Shown here one piece after another: positions 1-10,802 of a DNA stretch of 10,802 bases; within the stretch, counting starts at the first letter, position 1; each line of letters opens with the position of its first letter. Made by a program: the position numbers and the translations under genes. The notes beneath the pieces were generated by a model that searched no databases, was not told where the DNA came from, and saw nothing but the letters and a program-made list of their open reading frames with translations. Location: positions 1-10,802 of the IMG/VR virus record IMGVR_UViG_2698536392_000023; one strand, given 5' to 3'. The stretch comes from a virus (Duplodnaviria; Heunggongvirae; Uroviricota; Caudoviricetes).

Positions 1-258
1 CAGAACCACAACAAAGTAATACTCCGGGGCTCTGGTGGCGCTGATTACTGTGCCTTCTCCACCTGTCGGCTTCACCACAACAGGTGTGCTCACATCACCT
101 TCTGCGACAATCGCCTGAATAAGTGCTGCGCCATCATCCGTATACGAAGAAAACGGCCCACCGTATGGTTGCCATCCTTCACGAATTTTTTGCGCAAGTG
201 CATCAGCAAGGTCTGACGGCGATGCCGCCCTGACCACATCGTAGTGTTTAAATGCCAT
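1..258 (-). CDS. 5' part of a CDS whose N-terminus is in the window (86 codons, continues past position 1); DUF1737-like N-terminus as recalled for prophage NanS-p/YjhS-type esterases
   Basis: ATG at 258-256 (minus) preceded by GGAGGA 5 nt upstream; reverse-complement translation MAFKHYDVVRAASPSDLADALAQKIREGWQPYGGPFSSYTDDGAALIQAIVAEGDVSTPVVVKPTGGEGTVISATRAPEYYFVVVL with no stop before the window edge. Absent from the ORF track, which holds only ORFs with a stop in the window; the track ORF 90..356 is a different frame. Family assignment is from memory. Confidence 0.6.
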   Translation of the reverse strand, partial: MAFKHYDVVRAASPSDLADALAQKIREGWQPYGGPFSSYTDDGAALIQAIVAEGDVSTPVVVKPTGGEGTVISATRAPEYYFVVVL

Positions 259-451
259 GAATCCTCCCGGCCGGGATAATATTGTGAGTAAAATGAGGAG
301 CGGGCTGAAATCCGGAAGTTACAGGACAATGGCAGAAGAGAGACAACAGCCCGCAATACGAAAAAGGCCGCGCTATTGCGCAGAGTGATTACTGTCGGAT
401 ATTATTCGCCAGCTGAAATATTACTTCACGTTTTGTTGTTTATTCCTTGCC

Positions 452-480
452 GCCCGCGTCTCCCTGCGCGGGCTTTTTTT
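452..480 (+). terminator. Rho-independent terminator-like hairpin (GCCCGCG-N8-CGCGGGC followed by T7), plus-strand orientation
   Basis: 7-bp GC-rich stem 452-458/467-473, 8-nt loop, T-run 474-480. Confidence 0.5.
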
Positions 481-491
481 GTCCATAAGAA

Positions 492-511
492 AGCCCCTCC
501 GGAGAGGGGCT
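492..511. other. 8-bp perfect inverted repeat AGCCCCTC-CGGA-GAGGGGCT; with the 452-480 hairpin forms a back-to-back hairpin pair
   Basis: Arms 492-499 and 504-511 are exact reverse complements; on the minus strand it is followed by TTCTTAT. Confidence 0.45.
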
Positions 512-707
512 GGAGAGTGGCGCTATGTGCCATTGCATGGTGCCGGGTGCCTCCCGGTGAATTCAGTACCAGCACCTGAATCCGCGATTATCCCATATAC
601 CTACTCGCTGATTGCCCCTCCGCACAGGGGGATTCACCATGCCAGTTTCTTTTAACAAACTCCCCGCAAACCAGACAACAGTCAACCGCCTGAATTGTGA
701 GACATTT

Positions 708-733
708 AAAAAAAAGGCCCGCAAAAGCGAGCC
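708..733 (-). terminator. Rho-independent terminator immediately after the tRNA cluster
   Basis: Minus-strand read GGCTCGC-TTTT-GCGGGCC followed by T8 (plus A-run 708-715); 7-bp stem with one G-U pair. Confidence 0.75.
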
Positions 734-747
734 AGGGAAAATAAGTG

Positions 748-824
748 TGGCGCGTTGTACTGGATTCGAACCAGTGACCGATTGCTTAGAAGGCAATTGC
801 TCTGTCCGGCTGAGCTAACAACGC
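748..824 (-). tRNA. tRNA-Arg, anticodon UCU (reads AGA)
   Basis: Reverse complement GCGTTGTTAGCTCAGCCGGACAGAGCAATTGCCTTCTAAGCAATCGGTCACTGGTTCGAATCCAGTACAACGCGCCA folds as a cloverleaf: perfect 7-bp acceptor stem, GCTC/GAGC D-stem, anticodon loop CTTCTAA, T-loop TTCGAAT, encoded CCA. Confidence 0.85.
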
Positions 825-837
825 ATGATGCATATAA

Positions 838-914
838 TGGACCGCCATCGGGGACTTGAACCCCGCGCAGCCAGCTTCGAAGGCTGGCGCTCTTTCCTGA
901 TGAGCTAATGGCGG
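838..914 (-). tRNA. tRNA-Arg, anticodon UCG (reads CGA)
   Basis: Reverse complement CCGCCATTAGCTCATCAGGAAAGAGCGCCAGCCTTCGAAGCTGGCTGCGCGGGGTTCAAGTCCCCGATGGCGGTCCA: 7-bp acceptor stem CCGCCAT/ATGGCGG, anticodon loop CTTCGAA, T-loop TTCAAGT, encoded CCA. The 5' nucleotide is C, which is unusual. Confidence 0.75.
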
Positions 915-921
915 TATGTGA

Positions 922-997
922 TGGTGGACCTTGCTGGATTTGAACCAGCGGCCTGGCGATTATGAGTCGCTCGCTCTCACCACTGAGCTAAAGGGCC
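922..997 (-). tRNA. ileZ: tRNA with anticodon CAU; body resembles the Ile2 (lysidine, ileX/ileZ-type) class rather than Met
   Basis: Reverse complement GGCCCTTTAGCTCAGTGGTGAGAGCGAGCGACTCATAATCGCCAGGCCGCTGGTTCAAATCCAGCAAGGTCCACCA; anticodon loop CTCATAA, T-loop TTCAAAT, encoded CCA. Acceptor position 3-70 is a C/T mismatch. Ile2 versus Met isotype is from recalled similarity and phage context. Confidence 0.75.
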
Positions 998-1032
998 GGG
1001 AGCAGAATAATAACGGTCCGTAATTAATTCCG

Positions 1033-1060
1033 CAATAAAAAACCCGCTCGGCGGCGGGTT
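1033..1060 (-). terminator. tR'-like intrinsic terminator downstream of the late promoter
   Basis: Minus-strand AACCCGC-CGCCGA-GCGGGTT followed by TTTTATT; sits about 45 nt downstream of the candidate -10. Confidence 0.65.
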
Positions 1061-1107
1061 GTAGAAACTCTTCTAATGTCAGGCATAAAAAGCCCATCGT
1101 TATGACG

Positions 1108-1135
1108 AATTTACCACAGATTCCGGAAAAATCAA
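1108..1135 (-). promoter_or_regulatory. pR'-like late promoter (Q-modified), sigma70-type
   Basis: Minus-strand TTGATT (plus 1130-1135), 16-nt spacer, TAAATT (plus 1108-1113), immediately downstream of the Q-like stop codon at 1141. Confidence 0.55.
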
Positions 1136-1140
1136 CCTTG

Positions 1141-1962
1141 TTACCTAGTTACCTTTTTTAACTGCCGCTCAGCCCATGCTTCTTCAATATCAAACCGGGT
1201 CACCAGCGCATCATAGAATTTCTTAACTGTTTTTTCCCATGACGCGCGTGTTATCTGGTTTGTCACCTCGCATATAGCATTAAATGCCTCCGTTGATGGT
1301 AGTCTTTTATAGCCACGACCACCACAACGCTGGCAGTCTCTGATAACAGGCATACCACGTTTTACCGACTCTTCACGGTAAAGGGCGACACCACGCCCAC
1401 GGCAATCCTTACAGGCGGTGTAAACCTCACCCTTTCCGCCACACTCCGGACAGGCAACTTTTACCACCTCCCTGACTTTTTTCCATTCTTCCCAGTAAGA
1501 CGGATACACACCTTTCGTACACTTTGCCCATACCGGCGGCTTACCATCCGGATACTGGACCTTGTTTGTAAAAACTACGCTTTCAATAAATTTTTCCCCA
1601 TAGCAACAAGGGCACTGCTTTTTACTCGCTGCGCTGCGGGCATAATCCTCAAAAGCGTACGAAGCCATAATGCGCATCACTAACGGTTTTATTTCTGCCG
1701 GAAGTTTTCTCAACGCCGCCACACGATCGCACCGACTGAGTGCATAATCTGCCAGTAATTCTGTTGCCCGCGCCCTGTCATTCATACTGATGCCCATTTT
1801 CCCCAGGAACGCAGAAAACCCCATCTCAGCCCGATTCTGTGTCATGCTCTGCGCGGCCATCACATCAGTGATACTCAGCGCATCTTTTGACGTTGAGGCC
1901 GATGCATCGGTCAGGCAAGGGGATTTTGGGGAGTAGTATTTCGGTAAATCTTCCAGTTTCAT
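1141..1962 (-). CDS. Q-like late antiterminator (273 aa) with three CxxCxGxG zinc-finger motifs
   Basis: Complete ORF; position directly upstream of the pR'/tR'/tRNA block and downstream of rusA; motifs CPECGGKG, CKDCRGRG, CQRCGGRG; start ATG overlaps the rusA stop (ATGA). Confidence 0.65.
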   Translation of the reverse strand: MKLEDLPKYYSPKSPCLTDASASTSKDALSITDVMAAQSMTQNRAEMGFSAFLGKMGISMNDRARATELLADYALSRCDRVAALRKLPAEIKPLVMRIMASYAFEDYARSAASKKQCPCCYGEKFIESVVFTNKVQYPDGKPPVWAKCTKGVYPSYWEEWKKVREVVKVACPECGGKGEVYTACKDCRGRGVALYREESVKRGMPVIRDCQRCGGRGYKRLPSTEAFNAICEVTNQITRASWEKTVKKFYDALVTRFDIEEAWAERQLKKVTR

Positions 1963-2333
1963 TTTTTGACCTGCCCTTCAAGCATTATGGGGTAAATCTT
2001 CACCCCCAGACGTCCACCAGATACTGGCTGAGCACGAACGATATTGATTTCATCAAACTGCTCATCGTCCATTAGCAACCCCGCATGCGTCAGCGCATCC
2101 AGCGGCGCTTTCAGAATATTGTCCAGGTCACGGCGGCGCTTATCCGGTGGCTCGGCAATAATCTTTATCGCCAGCCTTCCGGACAGGTTTAATTTCAGCC
2201 GCTGCTGGCGAACAATAAGTGCCACATCCCGGCGATAACGCTCACCGGCTTTTGATACAAAATATGTGCTGCCACGACGTCGCCAGTAGGTGTTCACCGT
2301 CGGCGGGTAAGGCAAAACAAACTCTATACGCAT
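1959..2333 (-). CDS. rusA: RusA-family Holliday junction resolvase (124 aa)
   Basis: Typical size; N-terminus LPYPPTVNTYWRR and the DKRRRDLDN acidic motif resemble RusA; SD AAGAGG 6 nt upstream of ATG at 2333. Confidence 0.85.
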   Translation of the reverse strand: MRIEFVLPYPPTVNTYWRRRGSTYFVSKAGERYRRDVALIVRQQRLKLNLSGRLAIKIIAEPPDKRRRDLDNILKAPLDALTHAGLLMDDEQFDEINIVRAQPVSGGRLGVKIYPIMLEGQVKK

Positions 2334-2345
2334 CAGTAACCTCTT

Positions 2346-2873
2346 TTACCCGAGCACGCCGGTTGCAAAGGCGTGATCAAGAAAACGAAAAATTAAATCA
2401 ACCTGGGAACCATGCTTTTCTTCGAACGCCAGTGGATCCGCATGAAGCTCGTTGTGATGCTCCCGACACAGCGGTAGCGTGAAAATATCGTGGGATTTTG
2501 TTCCCATTCCGCCCTGACCATGACCAATCAGATGATGAGGATCGTCCGCTGGCTTACCACAACACGCACACGGCTGTGTCTTTACCCAGCGTGTGTATTT
2601 CTCATTTACCCAGCGGCGACGTTTAGGTCGTTTCATGAAGGATTCCGGAGACTCCGGATCAACGGCAATGCTGACCACCGTCTTTTCCTGTGGTGGGTTC
2701 TGTTGCTGGTGGGTGTGAGGTGGTAGCGCAATATTTTTTGTGCGCTGCTTCAGTATGCTGGTGGCGGTCTGTTCTCCCGGTATGATGTCGCTTTCACGGT
2801 ATACGGAGCGGATTTTTTCCGCCGGTAATCCCAGAGAACAACGCGCTACTGCCTCAGGTAGTGCATCCACCAC
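2346..2873 (-). CDS. HNH-like zinc-finger protein, DUF968/YdfU-like C-terminal region (175 aa as drawn; start uncertain, may be the 3' part of a frameshifted longer gene)
   Basis: Motif CACCGKPADDPHHLIGHGQGGMGTKSHDIFTLPLCREHHNELH. ORF begins with GTG and has no recognisable SD; the same frame stays open upstream to 2954; 28-nt overlap with the upstream ORF. Confidence 0.55.
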   Translation of the reverse strand: MVDALPEAVARCSLGLPAEKIRSVYRESDIIPGEQTATSILKQRTKNIALPPHTHQQQNPPQEKTVVSIAVDPESPESFMKRPKRRRWVNEKYTRWVKTQPCACCGKPADDPHHLIGHGQGGMGTKSHDIFTLPLCREHHNELHADPLAFEEKHGSQVDLIFRFLDHAFATGVLG

Positions 2874-3448
2874 CTGATTGCAGGCCGCCCACAGGATAAT
2901 TCGGCCAGCGATAACTCCCTCTCCTGCGTGCCGCTTATTGCGTGACGGATGACGTCAATCATCCAGGCAACCAGATTCTGCTGAGCAAGTTGATCGAGTG
3001 ATTCTGATGTCTGGTCGCGCAGCTGGTTGTCACAGTGCCAGCACAACACCATCGCGCCGGTACCGTAACGGTGAATGACTGTTTCGCTGTGATGATAATC
3101 GCCGTGTGGCCACTGGCAGGATTTCACGTGACGTAATAACCAGTCAGACAGTGCACCAGCGCCGCCAGCTGCACGAATCACCCGCTCATCGCTGAAAAAT
3201 GGCAGCAGTGATTTATCTTCCGCCAGCGGCTGGCGAACAGTAGGAACCGCTCCAGATGGCAGCGCCCGCATGTTTTTCGGTTCCGGCTCCACCAGTATTC
3301 TGCCGTTATGGAATGCTGACATTGATTCACGGCCTGGCTTAACGATAACCAGACCGAGTTCCGGTACCAGAACAGGTCGAAGTAATACCCGCACATTACC
3401 TCCAGACGCGCTGACGGTAGCAGGCATGTGTCCGTGGCAGATGTGCAC
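2846..3448 (-). CDS. HNH-like motif protein (about 200 aa as drawn; start codon uncertain)
   Basis: Motif CQWPHGDYHHSETVIHRYGTGAMVLCWHCDNQL. ORF-track start is a GTG; first ATG is at 3427; overlaps neighbouring ORFs at both ends. Confidence 0.5.
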   Translation of the reverse strand: MHICHGHMPATVSASGGNVRVLLRPVLVPELGLVIVKPGRESMSAFHNGRILVEPEPKNMRALPSGAVPTVRQPLAEDKSLLPFFSDERVIRAAGGAGALSDWLLRHVKSCQWPHGDYHHSETVIHRYGTGAMVLCWHCDNQLRDQTSESLDQLAQQNLVAWMIDVIRHAISGTQERELSLAELSCGRPAIRWWMHYLRQ

Positions 3449-3668
3449 GAACAGGAAGATATACAGAAACGGTCCAGGTCAGACGATCAGCGTTCAGACT
3501 CCGCTCCACACGGACACCGCGACGCAGATACGCCTCTTGAGGCATATCTGCCTCATCGATCGTACAGAACAGATAGTGAAACCAGCCATACTGAGGCGCA
3601 CGAAAACGCCTCCCCTGCTTAATTTCCAGGTCGGCTTCAGAATTGTGGGATTTTATGTGTTGTGTCAT
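3396..3668 (-). CDS. Hypothetical protein, 90 aa
   Basis: ATG at 3668 with GGAGAA SD 6 nt upstream; the C-terminal 18 codons overlap the next ORF in another frame. Confidence 0.5.
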   Translation of the reverse strand: MTQHIKSHNSEADLEIKQGRRFRAPQYGWFHYLFCTIDEADMPQEAYLRRGVRVERSLNADRLTWTVSVYLPVRAHLPRTHACYRQRVWR

Positions 3669-3717
3669 CGGATTCTCCGGTGACAGCAGGTGTCAGTTGT
3701 TCAGGCTGACTGCGCGA

Positions 3718-3746
3718 ATTGTAAGGCAATACGCCGGAATGTACAA
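3718..3746 (-). promoter_or_regulatory. Candidate sigma70 promoter for the downstream accessory operon
   Basis: Minus-strand TTGTAC (plus 3741-3746), 17-nt spacer, TACAAT (plus 3718-3723). Confidence 0.4.
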
Positions 3747-3771
3747 ACAGAAAACCCGTCAGTAAGACGGG
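3745..3771 (-). terminator. Intrinsic terminator of the YgiW-like moron
   Basis: Minus-strand CCCGTC-TTACT-GACGGG followed by TTTTCTGTTT, beginning 19 nt after the stop codon at 3790. Confidence 0.7.
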
Positions 3772-3789
3772 CTTAACAAGCAGGGGCGG

Positions 3790-4134
3790 TTACTTTAATA
3801 ATTTCAGTGCCTTTACATCAACTTCAACACTGCTCAGGTCTTTATCAATTTCACCCTCAATTCTTACTTTGTCTTTCGGAGAAACATTCTGCCCGGCCCA
3901 TACGCTGTCATCGATATCCGTGACAATTGTCCCGCTATTATCACGAAACTCATAACGTTCATCACCCACTTTTTTAACGATGCTCCCTTCAAGGATAACC
4001 CATGCATCATCCTTCAGTTCTTTTGCCTGCGCTACTGTTGAACGCTCTGCTTCAGGCCCTTGGAAACCGCCCTGCTGTGCAAAAACGCCAAAAGACACAC
4101 CGGAAATAAGTGCTGCAATCAATACCTTTTTCAT
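3790..4134 (-). CDS. YgiW/YdeI (BOF, bacterial OB-fold) family secreted protein with signal peptide (114 aa); prophage moron
   Basis: N-terminal signal peptide MKKVLIAALISGVSFGVFA; family-typical motifs QGGFQGP, DDAWV, SGTI, VSPKDKV, DKD..SVE.DVK; SD AGAGGG upstream; own terminator. Confidence 0.8.
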   Translation of the reverse strand: MKKVLIAALISGVSFGVFAQQGGFQGPEAERSTVAQAKELKDDAWVILEGSIVKKVGDERYEFRDNSGTIVTDIDDSVWAGQNVSPKDKVRIEGEIDKDLSSVEVDVKALKLLK

Positions 4135-4253
4135 TCATAGCCCTCTTTCAGAGATGAACATTCAAACAGCATTTTCAGTATGATAAAGCGCGGGTGCGTT
4201 GAGGATGCCTGACACATCAGAGGTGGCGAGGGATTTCTCCCCCGCCAGGTCTC

Positions 4254-4409
4254 TTACTCCTCAGGTTCGTAAGCTGTGAAGACAGCGACCTCCGTCTGGC
4301 CGGTTCGGATTCGTACCTCGCAGAGGTCTTTCCTCGTTACCAGTGCCGTCACTATGACGGTAATACAGATGACGATCAGGGCGATTAACATCGCCTTTTG
4401 CTGCTTCAT
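4254..4409 (-). CDS. hokD: Hok/Gef-family type I toxin (51 aa), closest in my memory to HokD/RelF
   Basis: MKQQKAMLIALIVICITVIVTALVTRKDLCEVRIRTGQTEVAVFTAYEPEE; SD AAGGAG upstream of ATG at 4409. The ORF-track entry 4254..4466 is the same frame extended to an upstream ATG. Confidence 0.85.
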   Translation of the reverse strand: MKQQKAMLIALIVICITVIVTALVTRKDLCEVRIRTGQTEVAVFTAYEPEE

Positions 4410-4422
4410 AGCCTGCTTCTCC

Positions 4423-4451
4423 TTGCCTTTCGGCGCGTAAGAGGCTAACCT
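4423..4451 (+). promoter_or_regulatory. Candidate promoter for a sok-like antisense RNA
   Basis: Plus-strand TTGCCT (4423-4428), 17-nt spacer, TAACCT (4446-4451); predicted transcript runs antisense across the upstream in-frame ATG (4466) and its GAGG SD. Confidence 0.35.
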
Positions 4452-4584
4452 ACATGTGTCTAGCATGAAATTGGCCTCAGATTAATGTTAGGCGTCTTGC
4501 AGGACGCGTAATGTTAACTGGGGCTTTTCTCTGTCTGCCTTACGGTGGCATGCCCGAGGCAGACAGCCTCAAGCACCCGCAGCA

Positions 4585-4612
4585 ATTCTACTTAACTCTC
4601 GCTTTACCGCAA
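4585..4612 (-). promoter_or_regulatory. Candidate promoter of the hok mRNA
   Basis: Minus-strand TTGCGG (plus 4607-4612), 16-nt spacer, TAGAAT (plus 4585-4590); gives a leader of about 170 nt, typical for hok mRNAs. Confidence 0.4.
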
Positions 4613-4624
4613 ACCGTTTTTACC

Positions 4625-4646
4625 CGATATGGGAATTCCCATATCG
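4625..4646. repeat. 22-bp perfect palindrome CGATATGGGAATTCCCATATCG
   Basis: Exact reverse-complement symmetry; lies between the stop of the 34-aa ORF (4655) and the candidate hok -35. Confidence 0.9.
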
Positions 4647-4654
4647 TAATGAAT

Positions 4655-4759
4655 TCAGTTCCCTAGTCGATCCATCAAAAACACAACCAGGCAGTAAACG
4701 CCCACAACAGCAATAACAGCCAGCGCACCTTCCATTGCCAGTGAAATATCATCCGACAT
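4655..4759 (-). CDS. Small hydrophobic protein, 34 aa (MSDDISLAMEGALAVIAVVGVYCLVVFLMDRLGN), predicted single transmembrane helix
   Basis: ATG at 4759 with strong SD AAAGGAGGG 4-5 nt upstream; absent from the ORF track because it is under 60 aa. Confidence 0.5.
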   Translation of the reverse strand: MSDDISLAMEGALAVIAVVGVYCLVVFLMDRLGN

Positions 4760-4794
4760 ATTCCCTCCTTTGGTGTTAATCCCGGCGAACGTTT

Positions 4795-4878
4795 TTACCC
4801 CCACCGACAAATAACATATACTAAAAAATCAATAGCTATAGCAACGCCTGTAATTGCAAAGGCTTCAGGCCAGATCAT
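4795..4878 (-). CDS. Small hydrophobic protein, 27 aa (MIWPEAFAITGVAIAIDFLVYVICRWG)
   Basis: ATG at 4878 overlaps the stop of the DUF551 ORF (ATGA); SD GGAGG 8-12 nt upstream. Confidence 0.45.
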   Translation of the reverse strand: MIWPEAFAITGVAIAIDFLVYVICRWG

Positions 4879-5460
4879 TGGCGCACCTCCTGCGGCGGTT
4901 CTGGTAGCGGCATCCAGTCGGTTACATTGCGGCTCTGTGTTTCGAAAAATTCATCACCATTACGGACTACATCAAAAAACTCACCGTCTCGATATTGCGC
5001 ATAAAGAACGAATGCGCCATCACATAAAATAATTACGTGCTGACCATCATCCGGCATTCGCTCACTACAGCTTATCCAATCATCCAGAGTTACCGGATAG
5101 TTGGTTGACGTTTCCGAGATTTCCCGAAAATTATTGGTTGACGAACCCTTTTTTTTCCCGAAAGTTTCCAGCCTGAAGCATGGCGGCGCTGTCTGGCGGG
5201 GCAGCATATAGCGGCACGTATATTTCCGGTTCCTTATCAGCACCGGGTTGCTCTTCCAGTGAGAATGTCTTTCCGGTAAATCGATTCATATAAAGCACGG
5301 GCTCTGCTTCCAGCGAAGCCTGAGCAACAAGGGCCAGTGCTAAATCCAACTCAATTGCCTCGAGAGAATTTTTGAATGCTGTCTGTTTTACTGCAAATTT
5401 CATCGCCTTTACATTTTCACTAACATGACTGATTAACTGCTCTTTTGTAAAAGTGGTCAT
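4875..5460 (-). pseudogene. DUF551-domain phage protein split into two frames at an A8 (plus-strand T8) tract
   Basis: Frame A 5460..5131 (ATG at 5460, SD AAGGAG) ends ...REKKGFVNQ; frame B 5243..4875 reads ...FGKKKGSS... and carries the DUF551-like C-terminus (DDWISCSERMPDDG...WMPLPEPP). The frames switch at the T8 run 5149-5156. Confidence 0.6.
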
Positions 5461-5516
5461 CTCATTCTCCTTTGATGCGAATGCCAGCGACAATTGAAGC
5501 CTGATAGCTAATTCAC

Positions 5517-5912
5517 TCACAATACCGCCTCCTGAAAATTGCCCTGATAGAACGCCAGTACACGCAGCATAACTTCACTCTTCCGGCACTCGCCACAGAT
5601 TATGTTCTGTTGTCTGTCGTAGCGGCGTATTTCTCCGTCTGGTAACTTTCGAATCAATGTCTGGTCGGTTGTTTTCTCCGCTGCCTTACGCCATACGCGA
5701 TACACCTGTTCTGATGTAAAAACACCGTATTTACCGGGCATGTATAAATCGCCGCAAGCCAGTACATCCACAAGGCAACGTCTGACTGAATGCCAGCCTG
5801 CTCCCGTCGCTCTCTCCAGTTGTGATATCGTCATGCGTTCATTTTTGCGTACCAGCCCGATAATTCGGGCCTTCAGTTCTTCACGCTGTTCGTGTGTAAA
5901 AGGTTTCGCCAT
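5517..5912 (-). CDS. Hypothetical phage protein, 131 aa, possible winged-helix fold
   Basis: ATG at 5912 with GGAGG SD 7 nt upstream; segment TISQLERATGAGWHSVRRCL looks HTH-like. Confidence 0.6.
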   Translation of the reverse strand: MAKPFTHEQREELKARIIGLVRKNERMTISQLERATGAGWHSVRRCLVDVLACGDLYMPGKYGVFTSEQVYRVWRKAAEKTTDQTLIRKLPDGEIRRYDRQQNIICGECRKSEVMLRVLAFYQGNFQEAVL

Positions 5913-5927
5913 AAGCGCCTCCGGCTA

Positions 5928-6653
5928 TCACTTTTCCGACACAATACGACCGGATGAATCGACAATCTGCCGAACAATATCCCAGTGCTTGTTCAGATCC
6001 CGCAGCGCGGCGCAGACTCGCTCCCACTTCTGAACCTGACCTTTTGCTCGGCGCAGCTCGCGGTTAGCCACATGCAGCGATGGTAGAATCAGGTCATCTG
6101 CTTTCGTTTCAGTGAACGATTGCTGCAACTTCACAATGTCCTCCACCGCTTCTGTTTTAATTTCTTCCTGTGCAGCCGTTTCCTGGACTGGTAACGCAAC
6201 ACCTGCTGGCTGAGGAAGGGCTTTACCCTCCGTTTCAGCTACGGATGCAGCTTTCTGCTCTGCCGGTAAATCAACGCCCGGTATGCAGTAACGAAATTTA
6301 CCATCCTGATTCACGCGAATCAGACGCCCTTTGCTGATTGCCATTGCCAGCGATGAATTCGCACGGCGGGAGGTAATTCCGAACATCAATGCCAGCTCAT
6401 CCGCCGTTTGTGGGCCATGATGTTCAATCGCCTCAGTCAGCATTTGCGCTGTCACTTTCGGTACCGGTGACACTGGTTCACTTTCACCAGTCTGAGTCAG
6501 CCACCACATCGACCCCTTGTTATCCGCTTCACCACGGCGCTTCAGTTTCCACAGTTCGTTGACAGCATCTTCGCGGCTGATTCCAAGGCGCGATGCCACT
6601 ACCTGTGAAGAGGCTTTTTTCAGTGCTTTCAGTGCGTCAAATACAGTTTCCAT
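5928..6653 (-). CDS. Phage protein with two tandem winged-helix-like domains and a C-terminal coiled-coil (241 aa), possibly DUF1627-like
   Basis: ATG at 6653 with GGAGGA SD; internal repeat of HTH-like segments ([22 protein letters not shown] and [26 protein letters not shown]). The ORF-track start at 6671 is a TTG. Confidence 0.65.
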
Positions 6654-6674
6654 TAAAACGTCCTCCAACAAAAA

Positions 6675-7421
6675 TTACTTCACAACCCTCTGATTGCTGA
6701 CATTTGGACGCCAGCTATCCCAGTTAAACGTCACCCATCGACCACCGCTCATGGTCATCCGGTCCATAATCCTCTCACCAAGAAGCGTGCTCATTGCGGC
6801 ATGATTCAGGTTTGTTAACATCCCGACACTGCACAGTGATGCTGTCCGGCGATCAATTATCTGGTGTAATACCACCTGCTCGTTTTTCGTCTCCCGCTGA
6901 ACGCCTATTTCATCCAGGACCAGCAAATCAACCCCGCAAAGCTCCTGTAAAAATTTTTCCCCGGATTTGCCGTTGTCGTAGCTGTCATGCAACACGCTCA
7001 TGACATCAGACACGGTGACGATAATCACGCTGCGCCCCTTCGCCATCAGCCGGTTACCCATCGCCGCTGCAAGGTGATTTTTCCCGGTGCCGGTTTTACC
7101 GCTGAACACAAAATTCGTGCACCCGGTCATCAGTTCGTCAGCTATGGATTTGGCCTGGCTCAGCGCGTATTTTTGCCCGTCGTTCTGCACCTGATAATTC
7201 GCAAACGAGCATTTGCTGTGCAGAGGCTGGATGCCCGAACGATTCAGGATTTTTTCCACCCGCAACTGGCGATTCTGGCGGTTAATCTCCTCGCTGCGTT
7301 TTCGTCCTTCAGCAAGTTGCCATTCCCGCCACTCCTCCACCGTCCGGTACGGTGGAACCGCCCCCTGTGGTGCAAGTCTGCGAATACGTTCAAGAACCCC
7401 AACTGCCGCAATGTTTTTCAT
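6675..7421 (-). CDS. DnaC-like replicative helicase loader (AAA+), 248 aa
   Basis: Walker A GKTGTGKNHLAAA, Walker B LLVLDEIG, and colinearity with E. coli DnaC (MKN..., NRSGI.PLH..CSF.NY); SD AGGGGGTGA upstream. Confidence 0.85.
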   Translation of the reverse strand: MKNIAAVGVLERIRRLAPQGAVPPYRTVEEWREWQLAEGRKRSEEINRQNRQLRVEKILNRSGIQPLHSKCSFANYQVQNDGQKYALSQAKSIADELMTGCTNFVFSGKTGTGKNHLAAAMGNRLMAKGRSVIIVTVSDVMSVLHDSYDNGKSGEKFLQELCGVDLLVLDEIGVQRETKNEQVVLHQIIDRRTASLCSVGMLTNLNHAAMSTLLGERIMDRMTMSGGRWVTFNWDSWRPNVSNQRVVK

Positions 7422-7427
7422 GACACG

Positions 7428-8498
7428 TCACCCCCTGAATCCCGGCGGTATTTCAGTGTCCGGTTCAGAAATGTGATTCACGCAACGCTGGTTGTTCGTG
7501 CCGCTTACCGGGAGCAACCAGGGGTTTTCAAAATTCCGGTCCGGCCCAAAAAACGTCGTCGCTCGCTGAACAAATTCCGTTCCCGCTTTCCCGGTCGCCG
7601 CCAGGTATCTCGCGTAACGCCTCACACCATCCAGCATGGTCTCTGGTGGCACCCCCTCGCGCAATCTGGCCTTCCAGGCACTGAATGCGGATTTCTTCGG
7701 GTTTGCTCCGGCACGCAACGGGTACTCCCGCCAGACCTGTTCGAACACATCCGGATAATCCACTCGTCCCACAGACTGCCCGGTGTTTTCCGGGACTACC
7801 CGATCGGCTTCCCGCTGAATGGCGGAATCGGCTTCGGGCTGCTGCAGTTGGTGTGATTGCTCCGGCCTTGCGGTCATCACCTGCTGCACAGCGCCCGAAT
7901 CGGCTTTCAGCGCATACGCTGAATCGGCTTCCGGTGTCGTGCCTACTGGCTGACCAGGATTGACGGTCTGAACATCCCCTGCCTGGTTCGTGGCGTTTTT
8001 TACGCCATGGACCATAGTGTTTTGATCTTCTTGATCTGTATCTTTATCTGTATCTTTATCTGTCGTGACTCGTCGTGACATGTGCGTGACATTTCGTGAC
8101 GCGCCGTGACAATCGCCATTTTGTTCCCGCTTTCTTTCCCTCTCTCGCTGCGCCCTCTTGCGCTCTGCAGGAGATTTTGCGGTTTGCGAAATATTGCCGT
8201 TGTCCTCTTTAAGCACCTGGCGTTTTTCCCATCCAGTGATTAAATCACCATCAAGTACCCGCCCCTGCATCGTCTGCAAAATTGAATCAATTACCTCTTC
8301 TGTCACGTCGAGCGCACTTGCCAAATCTTCTGTCGTGACATCAATGTGACCTCGCGTGACATTTCGTGACGCGCTCACCAGGAGGTGGATATACACTGCC
8401 ATCACTGTTGCAATTGGCTGCCCTGACACCCTGGCAATTGTTCGCCACTTAGGGTCATTTGGCATGTCATGCCATAATCTGAGCCAGGCGTTAGCCAT
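7428..8498 (-). CDS. O-like replication initiator (replisome organiser) carrying internal origin iterons, about 356 aa
   Basis: Sits upstream of the DnaC-like gene; iteron arrays lie inside the coding sequence as in lambda O. Probable start is ATG at 8498 with SD AGAGGTGA; the ORF track starts two codons earlier at a GTG. Confidence 0.7.
   Translation of the reverse strand: MANAWLRLWHDMPNDPKWRTIARVSGQPIATVMAVYIHLLVSASRNVTRGHIDVTTEDLASALDVTEEVIDSILQTMQGRVLDGDLITGWEKRQVLKEDNGNISQTAKSPAERKRAQRERERKREQNGDCHGASRNVTHMSRRVTTDKDTDKDTDQEDQNTMVHGVKNATNQAGDVQTVNPGQPVGTTPEADSAYALKADSGAVQQVMTARPEQSHQLQQPEADSAIQREADRVVPENTGQSVGRVDYPDVFEQVWREYPLRAGANPKKSAFSAWKARLREGVPPETMLDGVRRYARYLAATGKAGTEFVQRATTFFGPDRNFENPWLLPVSGTNNQRCVNHISEPDTEIPPGFRG
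8034..8063. repeat. Tandem 12-bp repeat (ATCTGTATCTTT x2.5) encoding a TDKD repeat in the initiator
   Basis: Exact copies at 8034-8045 and 8046-8057, partial at 8058-8063; moderately AT-rich, adjacent to iteron array A. Confidence 0.85.
8064..8110. repeat. Iteron array A: five CGTGAC repeats at 10/11/10/10-bp spacing (candidate replication origin)
   Basis: CGTGAC at 8064, 8074, 8085, 8095, 8105; helical-turn periodicity. Confidence 0.8.
8334..8374. repeat. Iteron array B: four (C)GTGAC repeats at 10-11 bp spacing; includes a 21-bp exact copy of part of array A
   Basis: Repeats at 8334, 8345, 8355, 8365; GCGTGACATTTCGTGACGCGC occurs at both 8084-8104 and 8354-8374. Confidence 0.8.
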
Positions 8499-8569
8499 AC
8501 TCACCTCTTCTGATACCGAATCTTTTTACTCACGAGTTGCCGGAAGCGATTCGATATGGCTATTATCAC

Positions 8570-8995
8570 TCAATGCACTGCCACAGCATTTCCTGCCGGG
8601 CCACCACGGTTCATCTGATTGAAACCGGCGATTGCCACCGCGACAAAATCATCAGCGTCTCTCACCAGTCGCTCCCGCGTCTCCACCAGCTCCCGAAAAT
8701 AAGCTGAACTGTGGCTGCGCATTCTGGCCACCAGCAAAGGTGGCATTGCCTTTTCGATCGCTGGTAACAACGCCTGAATTTTTTCAACTGCATCAGGGGT
8801 GTCTTTCTCTACCCAGCGGAAAATTTTCTGGGTATTGCGAGCCAGGGCTTCCGGATGGCTGTCGTCATACAGTTCCGGGAACGTCATACCCAACTCAAAA
8901 TAAGCCTGGGTTATTCCAGCTGCTGGAACTTTCTCACCATCAGGATATGCCCAGGCATTCATCGCCATGCGGATGTGCTCATGTTTGATTTTCAT
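8570..8995 (-). CDS. ydaT: YdaT-like protein (cII position; family reported as toxic in Rac prophage), 141 aa
   Basis: Size and position downstream of the Cro-like gene match Rac ydaT; N-terminus MKIKHEHI; SD AGAGG upstream; 17-nt overlap with the ydaS-like gene. Family call is from memory. Confidence 0.55.
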   Translation of the reverse strand: MKIKHEHIRMAMNAWAYPDGEKVPAAGITQAYFELGMTFPELYDDSHPEALARNTQKIFRWVEKDTPDAVEKIQALLPAIEKAMPPLLVARMRSHSSAYFRELVETRERLVRDADDFVAVAIAGFNQMNRGGPAGNAVAVH

Positions 8996-9302
8996 GAATC
9001 ATTTGCCTCTTGATGCTTCGGGTATGATCGTTTTCGTCATTTGGTTGCTTCATCGACATATTCTGCGAATAACATGACGAGCGTCGTAAGTATGTCCAAT
9101 CAACATCAGGACGAAGTTCTTCACACAGGACACCACCTTTTGTTGCTCGTTCAATCGCAGGACATCTCTCAGCAGGCAACTGACGTACACCTTTGATCCA
9201 TTGATTTACGCTTGGAGGAGATACACCTAAAAGCCTAGCCATTGCTGATTGCCCACCGACAACAGCACAAGCTCGTTTGAATGAATAGTTATCTTTTTTC
9301 AT
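8979..9302 (-). CDS. ydaS: YdaS-like Cro-type HTH protein, about 107 aa
   Basis: HTH segment QSAMARLLGVSPPSVNQWIKG; ATG at 9302 with GGAG SD (the ORF track begins at an upstream GTG, 9323); divergent from the repressor across an operator region. Confidence 0.65.
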   Translation of the reverse strand: MKKDNYSFKRACAVVGGQSAMARLLGVSPPSVNQWIKGVRQLPAERCPAIERATKGGVLCEELRPDVDWTYLRRSSCYSQNMSMKQPNDENDHTRSIKRQMIHENQT

Positions 9303-9329
9303 CGAATGAACTCCAAAAAACACACAATA

Positions 9330-9359
9330 ATATTAGGCTTAGCCTAATGTGATTATCAA
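9330..9359 (-). promoter_or_regulatory. PR-like promoter for the ydaS-ydaT-replication operon
   Basis: Minus-strand TTGATA (plus 9354-9359), 18-nt spacer, TAATAT (plus 9330-9335); spacer contains operator O1. Confidence 0.45.
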
Positions 9360-9398
9360 TAGGCTATGCCTAACGCTTCGAGAGTAGGGATTGCCTAA
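9333..9398. promoter_or_regulatory. OR-like operator cluster: three TTAGGC-N3-GCCTAA palindromes spaced 25-26 bp centre to centre
   Basis: O1 TTAGGCTTAGCCTAA 9333-9347 (perfect); O2 ATAGGCTATGCCTAA 9359-9373; O3 TAGGGATTGCCTAA 9385-9398 (one half-site imperfect). Confidence 0.7.
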
Positions 9399-9426
9399 CG
9401 CGATGCGCATAGGAGACTATTAAGCA

Positions 9427-9903
9427 ATGCTTAGTGGTAAAGACTTAGGCCGAGCGATAGAGCAGGCCATTAACAAAAAAATTGCATCAGGAGCCGTCAA
9501 ATCAAAGGCGGAAATCGCACGTCATTTCAAAGTCCAACCACCATCAATCCATGACTGGATTAAGAAAGGTTCGATAAGTAAAGACAAACTTCCAGAACTA
9601 TGGCGTTTCTTTTCTGATGTGGTTGGTCCAGAGCATTGGGGGCTTAACGAATACCCCATACCAACCCCATCCACTTCAGATACAAAAAGTGAACTTTTAG
9701 ACATAAACAGCCTTTATCAAGCCGCCTCTGATGAAAAAAGAGCAATTGTGGCTTTCCTCTTATCTGGAAATGCTACGGAGCCTAGTTGGGTTGATCATGA
9801 CGTTCGCGCCTACATTGCCGCAATGGAAATGAAGGTAGCTAACTATCTGAAAAATCAAGAATCAAAACGGAAAAGCCAGAACATCACCAAGACAGGAACT
9901 TAA
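9427..9903 (+). CDS. racR: RacR-like prophage repressor (cI-position HTH protein), 158 aa
   Basis: Divergent from the Cro-like gene across operators; HTH segment SKAEIARHFKVQPPSIHDWIKKG; AGGAG SD; size matches RacR. Family call is from memory. Confidence 0.65.
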   Translation: MLSGKDLGRAIEQAINKKIASGAVKSKAEIARHFKVQPPSIHDWIKKGSISKDKLPELWRFFSDVVGPEHWGLNEYPIPTPSTSDTKSELLDINSLYQAASDEKRAIVAFLLSGNATEPSWVDHDVRAYIAAMEMKVANYLKNQESKRKSQNITKTGT

Positions 9904-9997
9904 ACTTATATGGTCCGACGGGAAATTCCTAGTTCCCGTTAGTTAACTCCTACTACCTCTCCCACAAACCATCACCTATTAGGTCGCACCCAAACCA

Positions 9998-10036
9998 TTA
10001 GGCATAGCCTACTGACAAGCAATTAGGCATTTCCTA
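9998..10036. promoter_or_regulatory. OL-like operators: two further TTAGGC-N3-(G/T)CCTA palindromes downstream of the repressor gene
   Basis: TTAGGCATAGCCTA 9998-10011 and TTAGGCATTTCCTA 10023-10036; centres 25 bp apart. Confidence 0.6.
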
Positions 10037-10040
10037 TAGT
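10012..10040 (+). promoter_or_regulatory. PL-like sigma70 promoter overlapping the OL operators
   Basis: CTGACA (10012-10017), 17-nt spacer, TATAGT (10035-10040). Confidence 0.5.
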
Positions 10041-10244
10041 TTTCCCATACCAACCCATCCCGTCCCACACAATACAGGGCAATACCTAGAGTTACCCGGC
10101 AGTGGTCAGGGATTAAGTAGCCAGCCCGAGGCGTATGAACATGACGGCGGGAACACTTTGTATAACAGCGCAGCAGGTTTTTAGTTCCGCTACCCCAGCG
10201 TTAAGGGGAAATGAGGTCAGCATGGATACTATCGAGCTCCGATC

Positions 10245-10802
10245 CCTAAAGTAACCAGAGCCAGGCTCACCATGGAAGACTGGAAAAAAATTTACAATGC
10301 AACGCCTGAAAAACACTTTATCCGTAACGCAATGCTTCTTGCGATTGTTACTGGTCAGCGCCGTGATGACATTTGCCATATGCGTTTTTCAGATGTGTGG
10401 AACGAACACCTGCATATTACCCAGGGAAAAACTGGAATGCGTCTGGCGTTACCGCTGACGCTACGCTGTGATGCCATTGGGATATCGCTAAAAGAAGTGA
10501 TTGATGGATGCAGGGACAGAATATTGAGTCCATACCTGATTCATAGTCGGCACCAAAAACAACCAAAACCAATGAGTAAAGACAACCTGAGCGATTACTT
10601 TGCCAAAGCGCGGGAGCTGGCTGGAATAATTCCACCAGCAGGAAAAACTCCGCCAACATTTCATGAACAACGTTCTCTATCAGAACGGCTGTACCGTGCA
10701 CAGGGTATCGATACAAAAACATTACTGGGACATAAAGTCCAGGCAACCACCGATCGTTATAACGATACTCGTGGTCAGGAATGGGTTAAATTGGTTGTTT
10801 GA
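10245..10802 (+). pseudogene. Lambda-type tyrosine integrase, C-terminal catalytic domain only (N-terminal about 175 aa missing)
   Basis: Colinear with the lambda Int C-terminus (TGQRR, HEQRSLSERLY, LLGHK, DRYNDTRGQEW, stop at 10802); in-frame stop at 10212-10214 and no Int-like sequence upstream in any frame. Confidence 0.8.

Follow-up and report, generated by a model that had tools for sequence, protein, structure and literature searches.

The window analysed here is a stretch of 10,802 nucleotides from a Caudoviricetes record (IMG/VR IMGVR_UViG_2698536392_000023, positions 1 to 10,802), in which a sequence-only reading had drawn attention to two neighbouring open reading frames, here called genes A and B. 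ORF calling on the window recovered both on the minus strand at exactly the positions given by this reading, and PGAP predicts the same two coding sequences in the 100%-identical chromosome NZ_CP027459. The genes and spacers that make up the locus are as follows:

9427-9903, plus strand: RacR-type repressor, in the central window
6675..8504, minus strand: replication module directly upstream of A, delimited from ORFs, Pfam and PGAP
7428-8504, minus strand: replisome organiser, within the replication module
6675-7421, minus strand: IstB/DnaC-like loader, within the replication module and next to A
6654..6674, minus strand: spacer of 21 nt from the stop of the DnaC-like loader to the start of A, with the GGAGG Shine-Dalgarno sequence of A
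5928..6653 (6653→5928), minus strand: gene A, 241 aa, ATG at 6653, identical to WP_032206335.1
5913..5927, minus strand: spacer of exactly 15 nt between A and B, with the GGAGG Shine-Dalgarno sequence of B
5517..5912 (5912→5517), minus strand: gene B, 131 aa, identical to WP_001118161.1
4875..5460, minus strand: frameshifted DUF551 pseudogene downstream of B, start ATG at 5460

The GGAGG sequence of gene A lies 8 nt before ATG 6653; a TTG at 6671 would extend the protein by six residues, but it is ATG 6653 that the GGAGG precedes. For gene B the GGAGG lies 5 nt before the ATG, and the 15-nt gap previously read between the two genes (5913-5927) is exact. By contrast, the claim that the stop of B overlaps the next gene did not hold, as it rests on a mechanically called GTG at 5520, whereas PGAP and intact homologues start at ATG 5460, which is preceded by AGGAG 6 nt upstream and lies 56 nt after the stop of B. 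The frame called from GTG 5520 is in fact part of DUF551, being the N-terminal half of the frameshifted gene. An intact DUF551 homologue of 195 aa was found in another locus (L024).

From high to low coordinates, the order is RacR-type repressor, ydaS-/ydaT-like genes, replisome organiser, IstB/DnaC-like loader, A, B and DUF551, followed by hokD/sok, a YgiW-type OB-fold gene, DUF968, RusA, the Q antiterminator and three tRNAs. Apart from the repressor, every gene of the central window is encoded on the minus strand, and A and B occupy the usual accessory-gene position of lambdoid phages, as the earlier reading had recognised. Over 2.7 kb the window matches chromosomes of several STEC strains with 100% identity, and in strain 90-3040 PGAP annotates the products as 'DUF1627 domain-containing protein' (A, WP_032206335.1) and 'DUF977 family protein' (B, WP_001118161.1). 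Relatives of the 1.1-kb A+B segment are present in 2,769 of 5,426 complete E. coli genomes (51%), at up to nine places per genome. The prophage copy is decayed, with a truncated integrase and frameshifted DUF551 and DUF968 genes in the PGAP annotation. A and B are ordinary delayed-early genes of a defective Rac-type lambdoid E. coli prophage.

On the minus strand between 4700 and 7000 we found no sigma-70-like promoter and no intrinsic terminator. With neither element between the loader gene and DUF551, A and B, which have the same orientation as the replication genes, are most likely transcribed with them. Repeat families and repeated operator-like sequences were sought in and beside A and B (5517-6653), and none were detected. 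Binding of A to iterons near its own gene was considered and rejected, since iteron-like repeats are confined to GTGAC arrays within the organiser gene.

The sequence-only reading could not place either protein in a characterised family. Both belong to Pfam families, A to DUF1627/YdaW and B to DUF977/'LygF', and no failure of these assignments was seen in reciprocal profile searches. Gene A matches Pfam DUF1627 (PF07789) with 268.8 bits (E 1.6e-80; gathering threshold 28.1 bits), aligning the entire profile (1-155 of 155) with residues 76-230, and it matches phrog_630 at 1.2e-114 over residues 1-237. The Pfam model thus misses the first of two winged-helix (wH) domains, which phrog_630 includes. 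A is 56% identical to YdaW of the K-12 Rac prophage over residues 1-139, beyond which the K-12 protein is truncated, and 63-76% identical over its full length to YdaW of intact Rac-like phages. By these alignments, A represents in full length what K-12 Rac YdaW retains in truncated form. Searches returned 2,200 database clusters at E ≤ 1e-3, an exhaustive HMMER search for the family of A only 145 clusters among 1.84 billion cluster representatives, and a pattern search with a 10-sequence alignment of A eight loci; as far as sampled, the family is small and enterobacterial. Neither protein has a significant match in NCBIfam or PADLOC (best PADLOC E values 0.0028 and 0.0066, both partial), nor a sequence relative in the PDB below E 0.5.

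The architecture that had been read from the sequence of A, two tandem winged helices and a coiled-coil tail, agrees with the AlphaFold2 model (mean pLDDT 81), which in turn agrees on the domain layout with an alignment of 36 diverse homologues (20-77% identity, aligning end to end, with L34, W50 and R201 invariant). The domains of A map to the window as follows:

6495..6653, minus strand: winged helix 1 (wH1), residues 1-53, order H-E-H-H-E-E, pLDDT 93-97, with invariant L34 and W50
6279..6461, minus strand: winged helix 2 (wH2), residues 65-125, pLDDT 94-97
6084..6278, minus strand: Pro/Glu-rich linker, residues 126-190, predicted disordered, pLDDT 50-55
5931..6083, minus strand: C-terminal module, residues 191-241, motif 'IPxFTExRxDDLIxPS' followed by a long basic amphipathic helix

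Throughout the family these parts differ in charge. wH1, slightly acidic with a median net charge of -2, is joined by a short variable linker to the basic wH2 (median +3). The linker at 126-190 varies in length and sequence in the alignment and is acidic (median -6), and the C-terminal module, with the invariant R201 and the consensus REIRRTKxxLxxLExLRxA, has a median net charge of +7. The helix spans residues 193-239 with an a/d hydrophobic stripe and exceeds pLDDT 90 at residues 200-230.

Foldseek searches against the PDB (for A and B) and BFVD (for A) returned generic winged-helix and tandem-wH folds only, at TM about 0.2-0.4. For A, the best PDB matches were tandem-wH proteins (ScpB, ESCRT-II, SelB and AlkZ/YcaQ; TM about 0.2, E 4e-5 to 3e-3), and those in BFVD were uncharacterised viral wH proteins; for B, the matches were N-terminal wHTH domains of the IclR/GntR type and minimal wH domains. 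Z-alpha domains also occur among the Foldseek matches of both proteins. The Z-alpha signature combines N-x-x-x-Y in the recognition helix with P-P-x-W in the wing. A Z-DNA-binding identity for A was rejected, as the A-family consensus reads N-M-L-R/W at this place, conserves neither the Tyr nor the Pro-Pro and keeps only the tryptophan of the wing (W50).

Gene B matches the whole of Pfam DUF977 (PF06163; profile 1-134 of 134) with 241.3 bits and E 3.2e-72, against a gathering threshold of 22.1 bits. It is 47-52% identical to DUF977/'LygF' proteins of isolated phages, the majority of which are annotated LygF, and up to 92% identical to other database members, and 531 database clusters were found at E ≤ 1e-3. 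Phage records name the family either LygF or Ren-like exclusion protein; in the literature we found no functional study behind the name 'LygF', which is carried in phage and Salmonella records. The second name leads to phage lambda. B matches phrog_142, 'Ren-like exclusion protein', at 1.7e-43 and lambda Ren matches the same group at 1.6e-41; BLASTP aligns B with lambda Ren over 87 residues at 29% identity (E 2e-6), and profile comparison by hhalign of 23 DUF977 proteins with 16 Ren proteins covers 90 columns and Ren residues 4-93 with a probability of 96.8% (E 2.8e-10). In the joint alignment of both families 11-12 residues are invariant (among them K14, W74, N103, E108, C109, S112, M115, R117, L119, Y122 and G124), concentrated in a C-terminal motif. 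Lambda Ren does not match the Pfam DUF977 model, so that the connection is invisible to Pfam-based annotation, and a word-based search from Ren did not reach the DUF977 proteins, so that profile methods were needed to make the link. B is, on these comparisons, a longer homologue of lambda Ren. To our knowledge, Ren has been characterised by genetics only.

The AlphaFold2 model of B (mean pLDDT 76) bears out the earlier description of this protein as HTH-like, with an N-terminal winged helix at residues 7-66. Two regions stand out:

5715..5894, minus strand: N-terminal winged helix of B, residues 7-66, pLDDT 90-95
5541..5645, minus strand: C-terminal motif of B shared with Ren, residues 90-124, LPDGEIRRYDRxxNIICxECRxSxxMxRVLAFYxG

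The C-terminal motif is the most conserved region of B, yet its pLDDT is low to moderate, and high conservation combined with poor definition in the model suggests a region that folds on a partner. A and B were also considered as paralogues. This was rejected, since BLASTP finds nothing between them and hhalign detects only generic wH similarity over 45 columns at 13% identity; the weak profile similarity concerns wH2 of A and the winged helix of B/Ren (hhalign 90%, E 1.6e-6).

In pairwise comparison with homologues, dN/dS ranges from 0.24 to 0.62 in A and from 0.07 to 0.48 in B, values by which both are under purifying selection. On the basis of the Pfam scores (269 and 241 bits), the thousands of homologues and the dN/dS ratios, A and B are real genes and not chance ORFs.

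To determine if A and B form a unit, as the term 'two-gene cassette' in the sequence-only reading implied, we used 80 IMG/VR loci with close homologues of A, of which 76 extend far enough downstream to be informative. In 20 of the 76, B comes after A with the same short gap; it is displaced in two and absent from 54, where another gene follows A. A itself invariably comes directly after the last replication gene, whatever the type of that gene: it is IstB/DnaC-like in the window, of the lambda P type (PF06992) in L024 and no more than an HTH initiator in L093. Genomes of Escherichia, Serratia and Enterobacter show this placement too, while the genes downstream of A are unrelated. The last ~10 codons of A exist in two versions that match the downstream gene perfectly. 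One (ending in 14 residues not printed here) goes with B, and the other, ending in DILRDITATREQQR, is paired with a small HTH gene (phrog_323) overlapping A at its end. The label of phrog_323 is 'transcriptional regulator'. Read from these alignments, the last ~10 codons of A are a classic mosaic junction.

Phage records tell a similar story. A occurs in 24 of 50,697, about half of which also have B directly after A, and 11 records of PPompW / Stx2a-converting phages have A without B. B occurs in 25 records, about half of them (about 12) without A and with B directly after a replication gene, as in mEp460. The arrangement A-B is itself not new, since it is already in RefSeq (e.g. gp17/gp18 of Shigella phage 75/02 Stx). 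The cassette therefore did not survive as a unit: as the distribution and junction sequences show, the adjacency of A and B results from mosaic recombination and does not reflect one machine.

What might the two genes do? Loss of ren makes lambda sensitive to RexAB exclusion. In the phage, ren is a delayed-early gene transcribed from pR with O and P, and Ren and O both interacted with Rex proteins in a bacterial two-hybrid assay (bioRxiv 10.1101/2021.04.19.439022). These genetics and the two-hybrid interactions of Ren and O with Rex led us to propose that B shields lytic development from a Rex-type system. B would work like Ren, being non-essential, made early in lytic growth and letting the phage escape Rex-type abortive infection. 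It would contact protein partners through the conserved C-terminal NIIxxECRxSxxMxRVLAxY motif, the winged helix offering a second binding surface. By analogy with Ren, B is probably an escape factor against Rex-like exclusion; the window holds no rex-like genes. The earlier suggestion that the pair is a candidate for an undescribed regulatory or exclusion function stands in part: for B an exclusion-type role is plausible, but B is homologous to Ren (hhalign 96.8%, phrog_142), a result named in advance by the sequence-only reading as one that would refute it.

Four features of A point towards an adaptor that works as a dimer: its position is constant, one winged helix is acidic and the other basic, its C-terminal helix probably dimerises, and most lambdoid phages lack it. 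A would dimerise through its C-terminal helix, with the basic wH2 and basic helix binding nucleic acid and the acidic wH1 a protein partner, and may act as a modular add-on to the replication module in an accessory or counter-defence capacity, not in essential replication. We regard A as probably a winged-helix adaptor linked to the replication module and possibly a counter-defence protein. Over-expressed K-12 ydaW was scored as a candidate blocker of the retron-Sen2 toxin RcaT (bioRxiv 10.1101/2020.06.22.160242), a result weakly compatible with a counter-defence role of A. This retron result comes from a screen with over-expression of the truncated protein, which comprises wH1 and wH2 only. 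Our literature search on DUF1627, DUF977, LygF, YdaW and Ren returned no functional study beyond the lambda Ren genetics and this screen. Taken jointly, the best explanation is that A and B are two independent delayed-early genes, B of the Ren type and A an accessory or counter-defence add-on to the replication module, an account to which we give an even chance of being correct.

Could A and B instead be conventional winged-helix transcription factors, with operators in the prophage or host, that tune delayed-early, late or host genes? Both contain confidently predicted wHTH domains, Pfam and PHROG give weak matches to regulators of the MarR/TrmB/IclR type, YdaW figures among the E. coli proteins predicted to be transcription factors with function unknown (PMC9308461) and, when B is absent, its slot is taken by the small HTH protein of phrog_323. 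On the other hand, none of the family-specific signatures of regulators scores above threshold, conservation in B peaks in the C-terminal motif and not in the winged helix, wH1 of A is acidic across the family, and the search for repeated operator-like sequences in and beside the genes came back empty. Moreover, the tandem-wH structural neighbours of A include protein-binding adaptors (ScpB, ESCRT-II) besides nucleic-acid binders. We consider transcription factors unlikely on balance, if worth keeping in mind.

Much the same holds for an accessory role in replication, in which A and B would act on the organiser, the loader or the origin to stabilise or localise the initiation complex. Winged helices are often used by plasmid and phage initiators, and A comes invariably right after the last replication gene across genera and loader types; yet its presence beside unrelated loaders argues against a specific loader partner, and most lambdoid phages with the same kinds of replication genes do without A, as its scarcity among phage records (24 of 50,697) attests. 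Ren has been described as 'likely involved in DNA replication', and its interaction with Rex proteins is one that O shares. Against this, ren is non-essential and, together with the whole nin region, dispensable for plaque formation (PMC10695390), and Ren is unnecessary for P-lethality or replicative killing (PMC3640518). An accessory replication function is accordingly about as improbable, in our view, as transcriptional control.

A bolder form of the counter-defence idea is that Rac-type phages keep a swappable slot for counter-defence where the replication module ends, in which full-length YdaW/DUF1627 acts against abortive-infection toxins and DUF977/Ren against Rex-like sensors. DUF1627 proteins would directly neutralise toxins such as RcaT, either via the acidic wH1 and linker or via the basic C-terminal helix, and DUF977/Ren would neutralise Rex-like sensors triggered by phage replication complexes. 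We hold this generalisation to be doubtful, somewhat more so than the two preceding readings; if true, both DUF families would be anti-defence proteins whose targets could be found by simple co-expression assays.

A two-component toxin-antitoxin or superinfection-exclusion pair that protects the lysogen from other phages is suggested by a weak match to an AbiEi-antitoxin-like winged helix (PF13338, E 0.024) and by the PHROG label of the family of B, 'Ren-like exclusion protein', but Ren guards its own phage against exclusion and does not exclude others. As the two genes are not obligately linked (adjacent in 20 of 76 loci), neither the AlphaFold2 models nor Pfam reveal a toxin-like fold or enzymatic domain, PADLOC gives no significant match, and the genes lie in a repressed lytic operon without a promoter of their own and not in a lysogenically expressed moron slot, we deem such a pair very improbable. 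Equally improbable is that A and B are silent passengers, currently functionless in this strain: the integrase, DUF551 and DUF968 lesions in the same prophage and an operon thought to be controlled by the RacR-type repressor, which may keep the genes silent in the lysogen, would fit, but both ORFs are intact and identical in several strains, and family-wide dN/dS below 1 means that the families are functional even if the copy in the window is idle.

The preferred account, two independent delayed-early genes of which B is Ren-like, concerns proteins that are already known: the exact sequences are in RefSeq, both families are very common and have entries in Pfam and PHROG, and the gene order is present in RefSeq phages. 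The window itself adds nothing new toward the function of either family. What it brings into view is a tie of the second gene to lambda Ren, which is among the last early genes of lambda to lack a mechanism, and the constant presence of DUF1627 proteins as an appendage to replication modules that have otherwise nothing in common. Both genes are widespread among prophages of STEC, and functional work on them would fill a real annotation gap. Ciprofloxacin strongly induces a Ren gene carried by an EHEC prophage (PMC11125564).

Among known systems, ScpB, ESCRT-II subunits, the C-terminus of SelB and AlkZ/YcaQ resemble A in having two consecutive wH domains, but with TM about 0.2, 14-21% identity and no common sequence signature, and none of them has the acidic linker and basic C-terminal helix of A; this likeness is an architectural analogy, not evidence for a common function. 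Closer by far is YdaW of the K-12 Rac prophage (b1361), of the same family as A and at the same place after the DnaC-like ydaV. In contrast to A, it was cut after wH2 by the Rac deletion, and it lacks the linker and C-terminal helix. The whole arrangement recurs in Shigella phage 75/02 Stx (gp17-gp18), POCJ13, Rac-SA53 and phiSTEC1589-Stx1c, with a DnaC-like loader, DUF1627 and DUF977/Ren-like gene in succession at gaps of 14-20 nt, and in the annotation of phage 75/02 Stx the three appear as DnaC-like, DUF1627 and 'Ren-like exclusion protein'. Protein identity to the window is 44-64% for A and about 50% for B, and these four phages are intact and inducible, whereas the prophage of the window is defective.

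Within the DUF977 'LygF' proteins of Salmonella and Rac-like phages, a family previously noted as winged helix (PMC2686095), B is a plain member with no notable difference. Its relation to lambda Ren (NP_040633.1, 96 aa) extends over nearly the whole length of Ren. Both proteins combine an N-terminal winged helix with the C-terminal motif N-[IL]-[IV]-x-x-E-C-R-x-S-x-x-M-x-R-V-L-A-x-Y-G, and both genes stand at the end of the replication genes in a pR-type operon, ren following P in lambda. B is the longer of the two (131 versus 96 aa), with a ~13-residue N-terminal extension and a ~30-residue insertion that contains LPDGEIRRYDR, and a CxxC takes the place of the single Cys of Ren. Finally, ren abuts the helicase-loader gene, whereas here B is separated from the loader by A.

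Among the IMG/VR loci with close homologues of the 241-aa protein (L005-L084), the variant of the C-terminal tail of the DUF1627 protein, encoded by the last ~30 nt of its gene, was a perfect predictor of the gene downstream. One tail variant (14 residues) pairs with DUF977, and the other, ending in ...DILRDITATREQQR, pairs with an overlapping HTH gene (~85 aa, phrog_323). The tail variants place a recombination junction within the final ~10 codons of the DUF1627 gene.

Other neighbours were found at further loci with a DUF1627 homologue. In two Serratia prophages (L091 and L092), the lambda-P-type gene is separated from the DUF1627 homologue by an additional winged-helix ORF, 3528-4001 (+), which has a weak, below-threshold match to an Lpa-like late promoter activator (PF25716). 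In Enterobacter mori and 'Bacterium BS0013' (L093 and L094), a small ORF rich in Cys (CPxCG ... C ... C; ~4590-4856, +) lies downstream of the homologue; its product may resemble Lar-type restriction-alleviation proteins.

From the DUF551 gene to the late end, the window holds the following features:

4875-5460 (-), DUF551 gene, a frameshifted pseudogene
4404-4578 (-), sok antitoxin RNA, paired with hokD (Rfam match, 117 bits)
4254-4466 (-), hokD type I toxin gene (coordinates from the ORF list; 156 nt as called by PGAP)
2346-3448 (-), DUF968 gene, split into two ORFs, 2846-3448 and 2346-2873, which overlap
748-997 (-), three tRNA genes carried by the phage (Arg-tct, Arg-tcg and one with the anticodon CAT)
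481-671 (-), sRNA STnc100 (full-length Rfam match, 138 bits)

The DUF551 region comprises two ORFs in differing frames, 5131-5460 (MTTFTKEQ...) and 4875-5243 (with the DUF551 domain), which overlap around a run of A at ~5150-5160, and a locus with a lambda-P-type replication gene (L024, 6528-7115) carries an intact version of 195 aa. PGAP likewise marks this frameshift and also calls DUF968 frameshifted. The CAT-anticodon tRNA was assigned to Met by ARAGORN, whereas PGAP assigned it to Ile; such a trio is typical of Stx-type late regions. The three tRNA genes stand downstream of the Q antiterminator, and the STnc100 match lies just past them.

At the opposite end, two genes directly adjoin:

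9427-9903 (+), racR-type repressor
10272-10802 (+), truncated tyrosine integrase

This direct juxtaposition indicates that the left arm is missing and, together with the frameshifts, shows that the prophage is defective. In the STEC strain 90-3040 its insertion site is near potC.

Finally, two clusters of four closely spaced GTGAC repeats each (8072-8110 and 8332-8370) fall within the replisome-organiser gene and look like putative origin iterons, a placement similar to that of ori-lambda, which lies within gene O.
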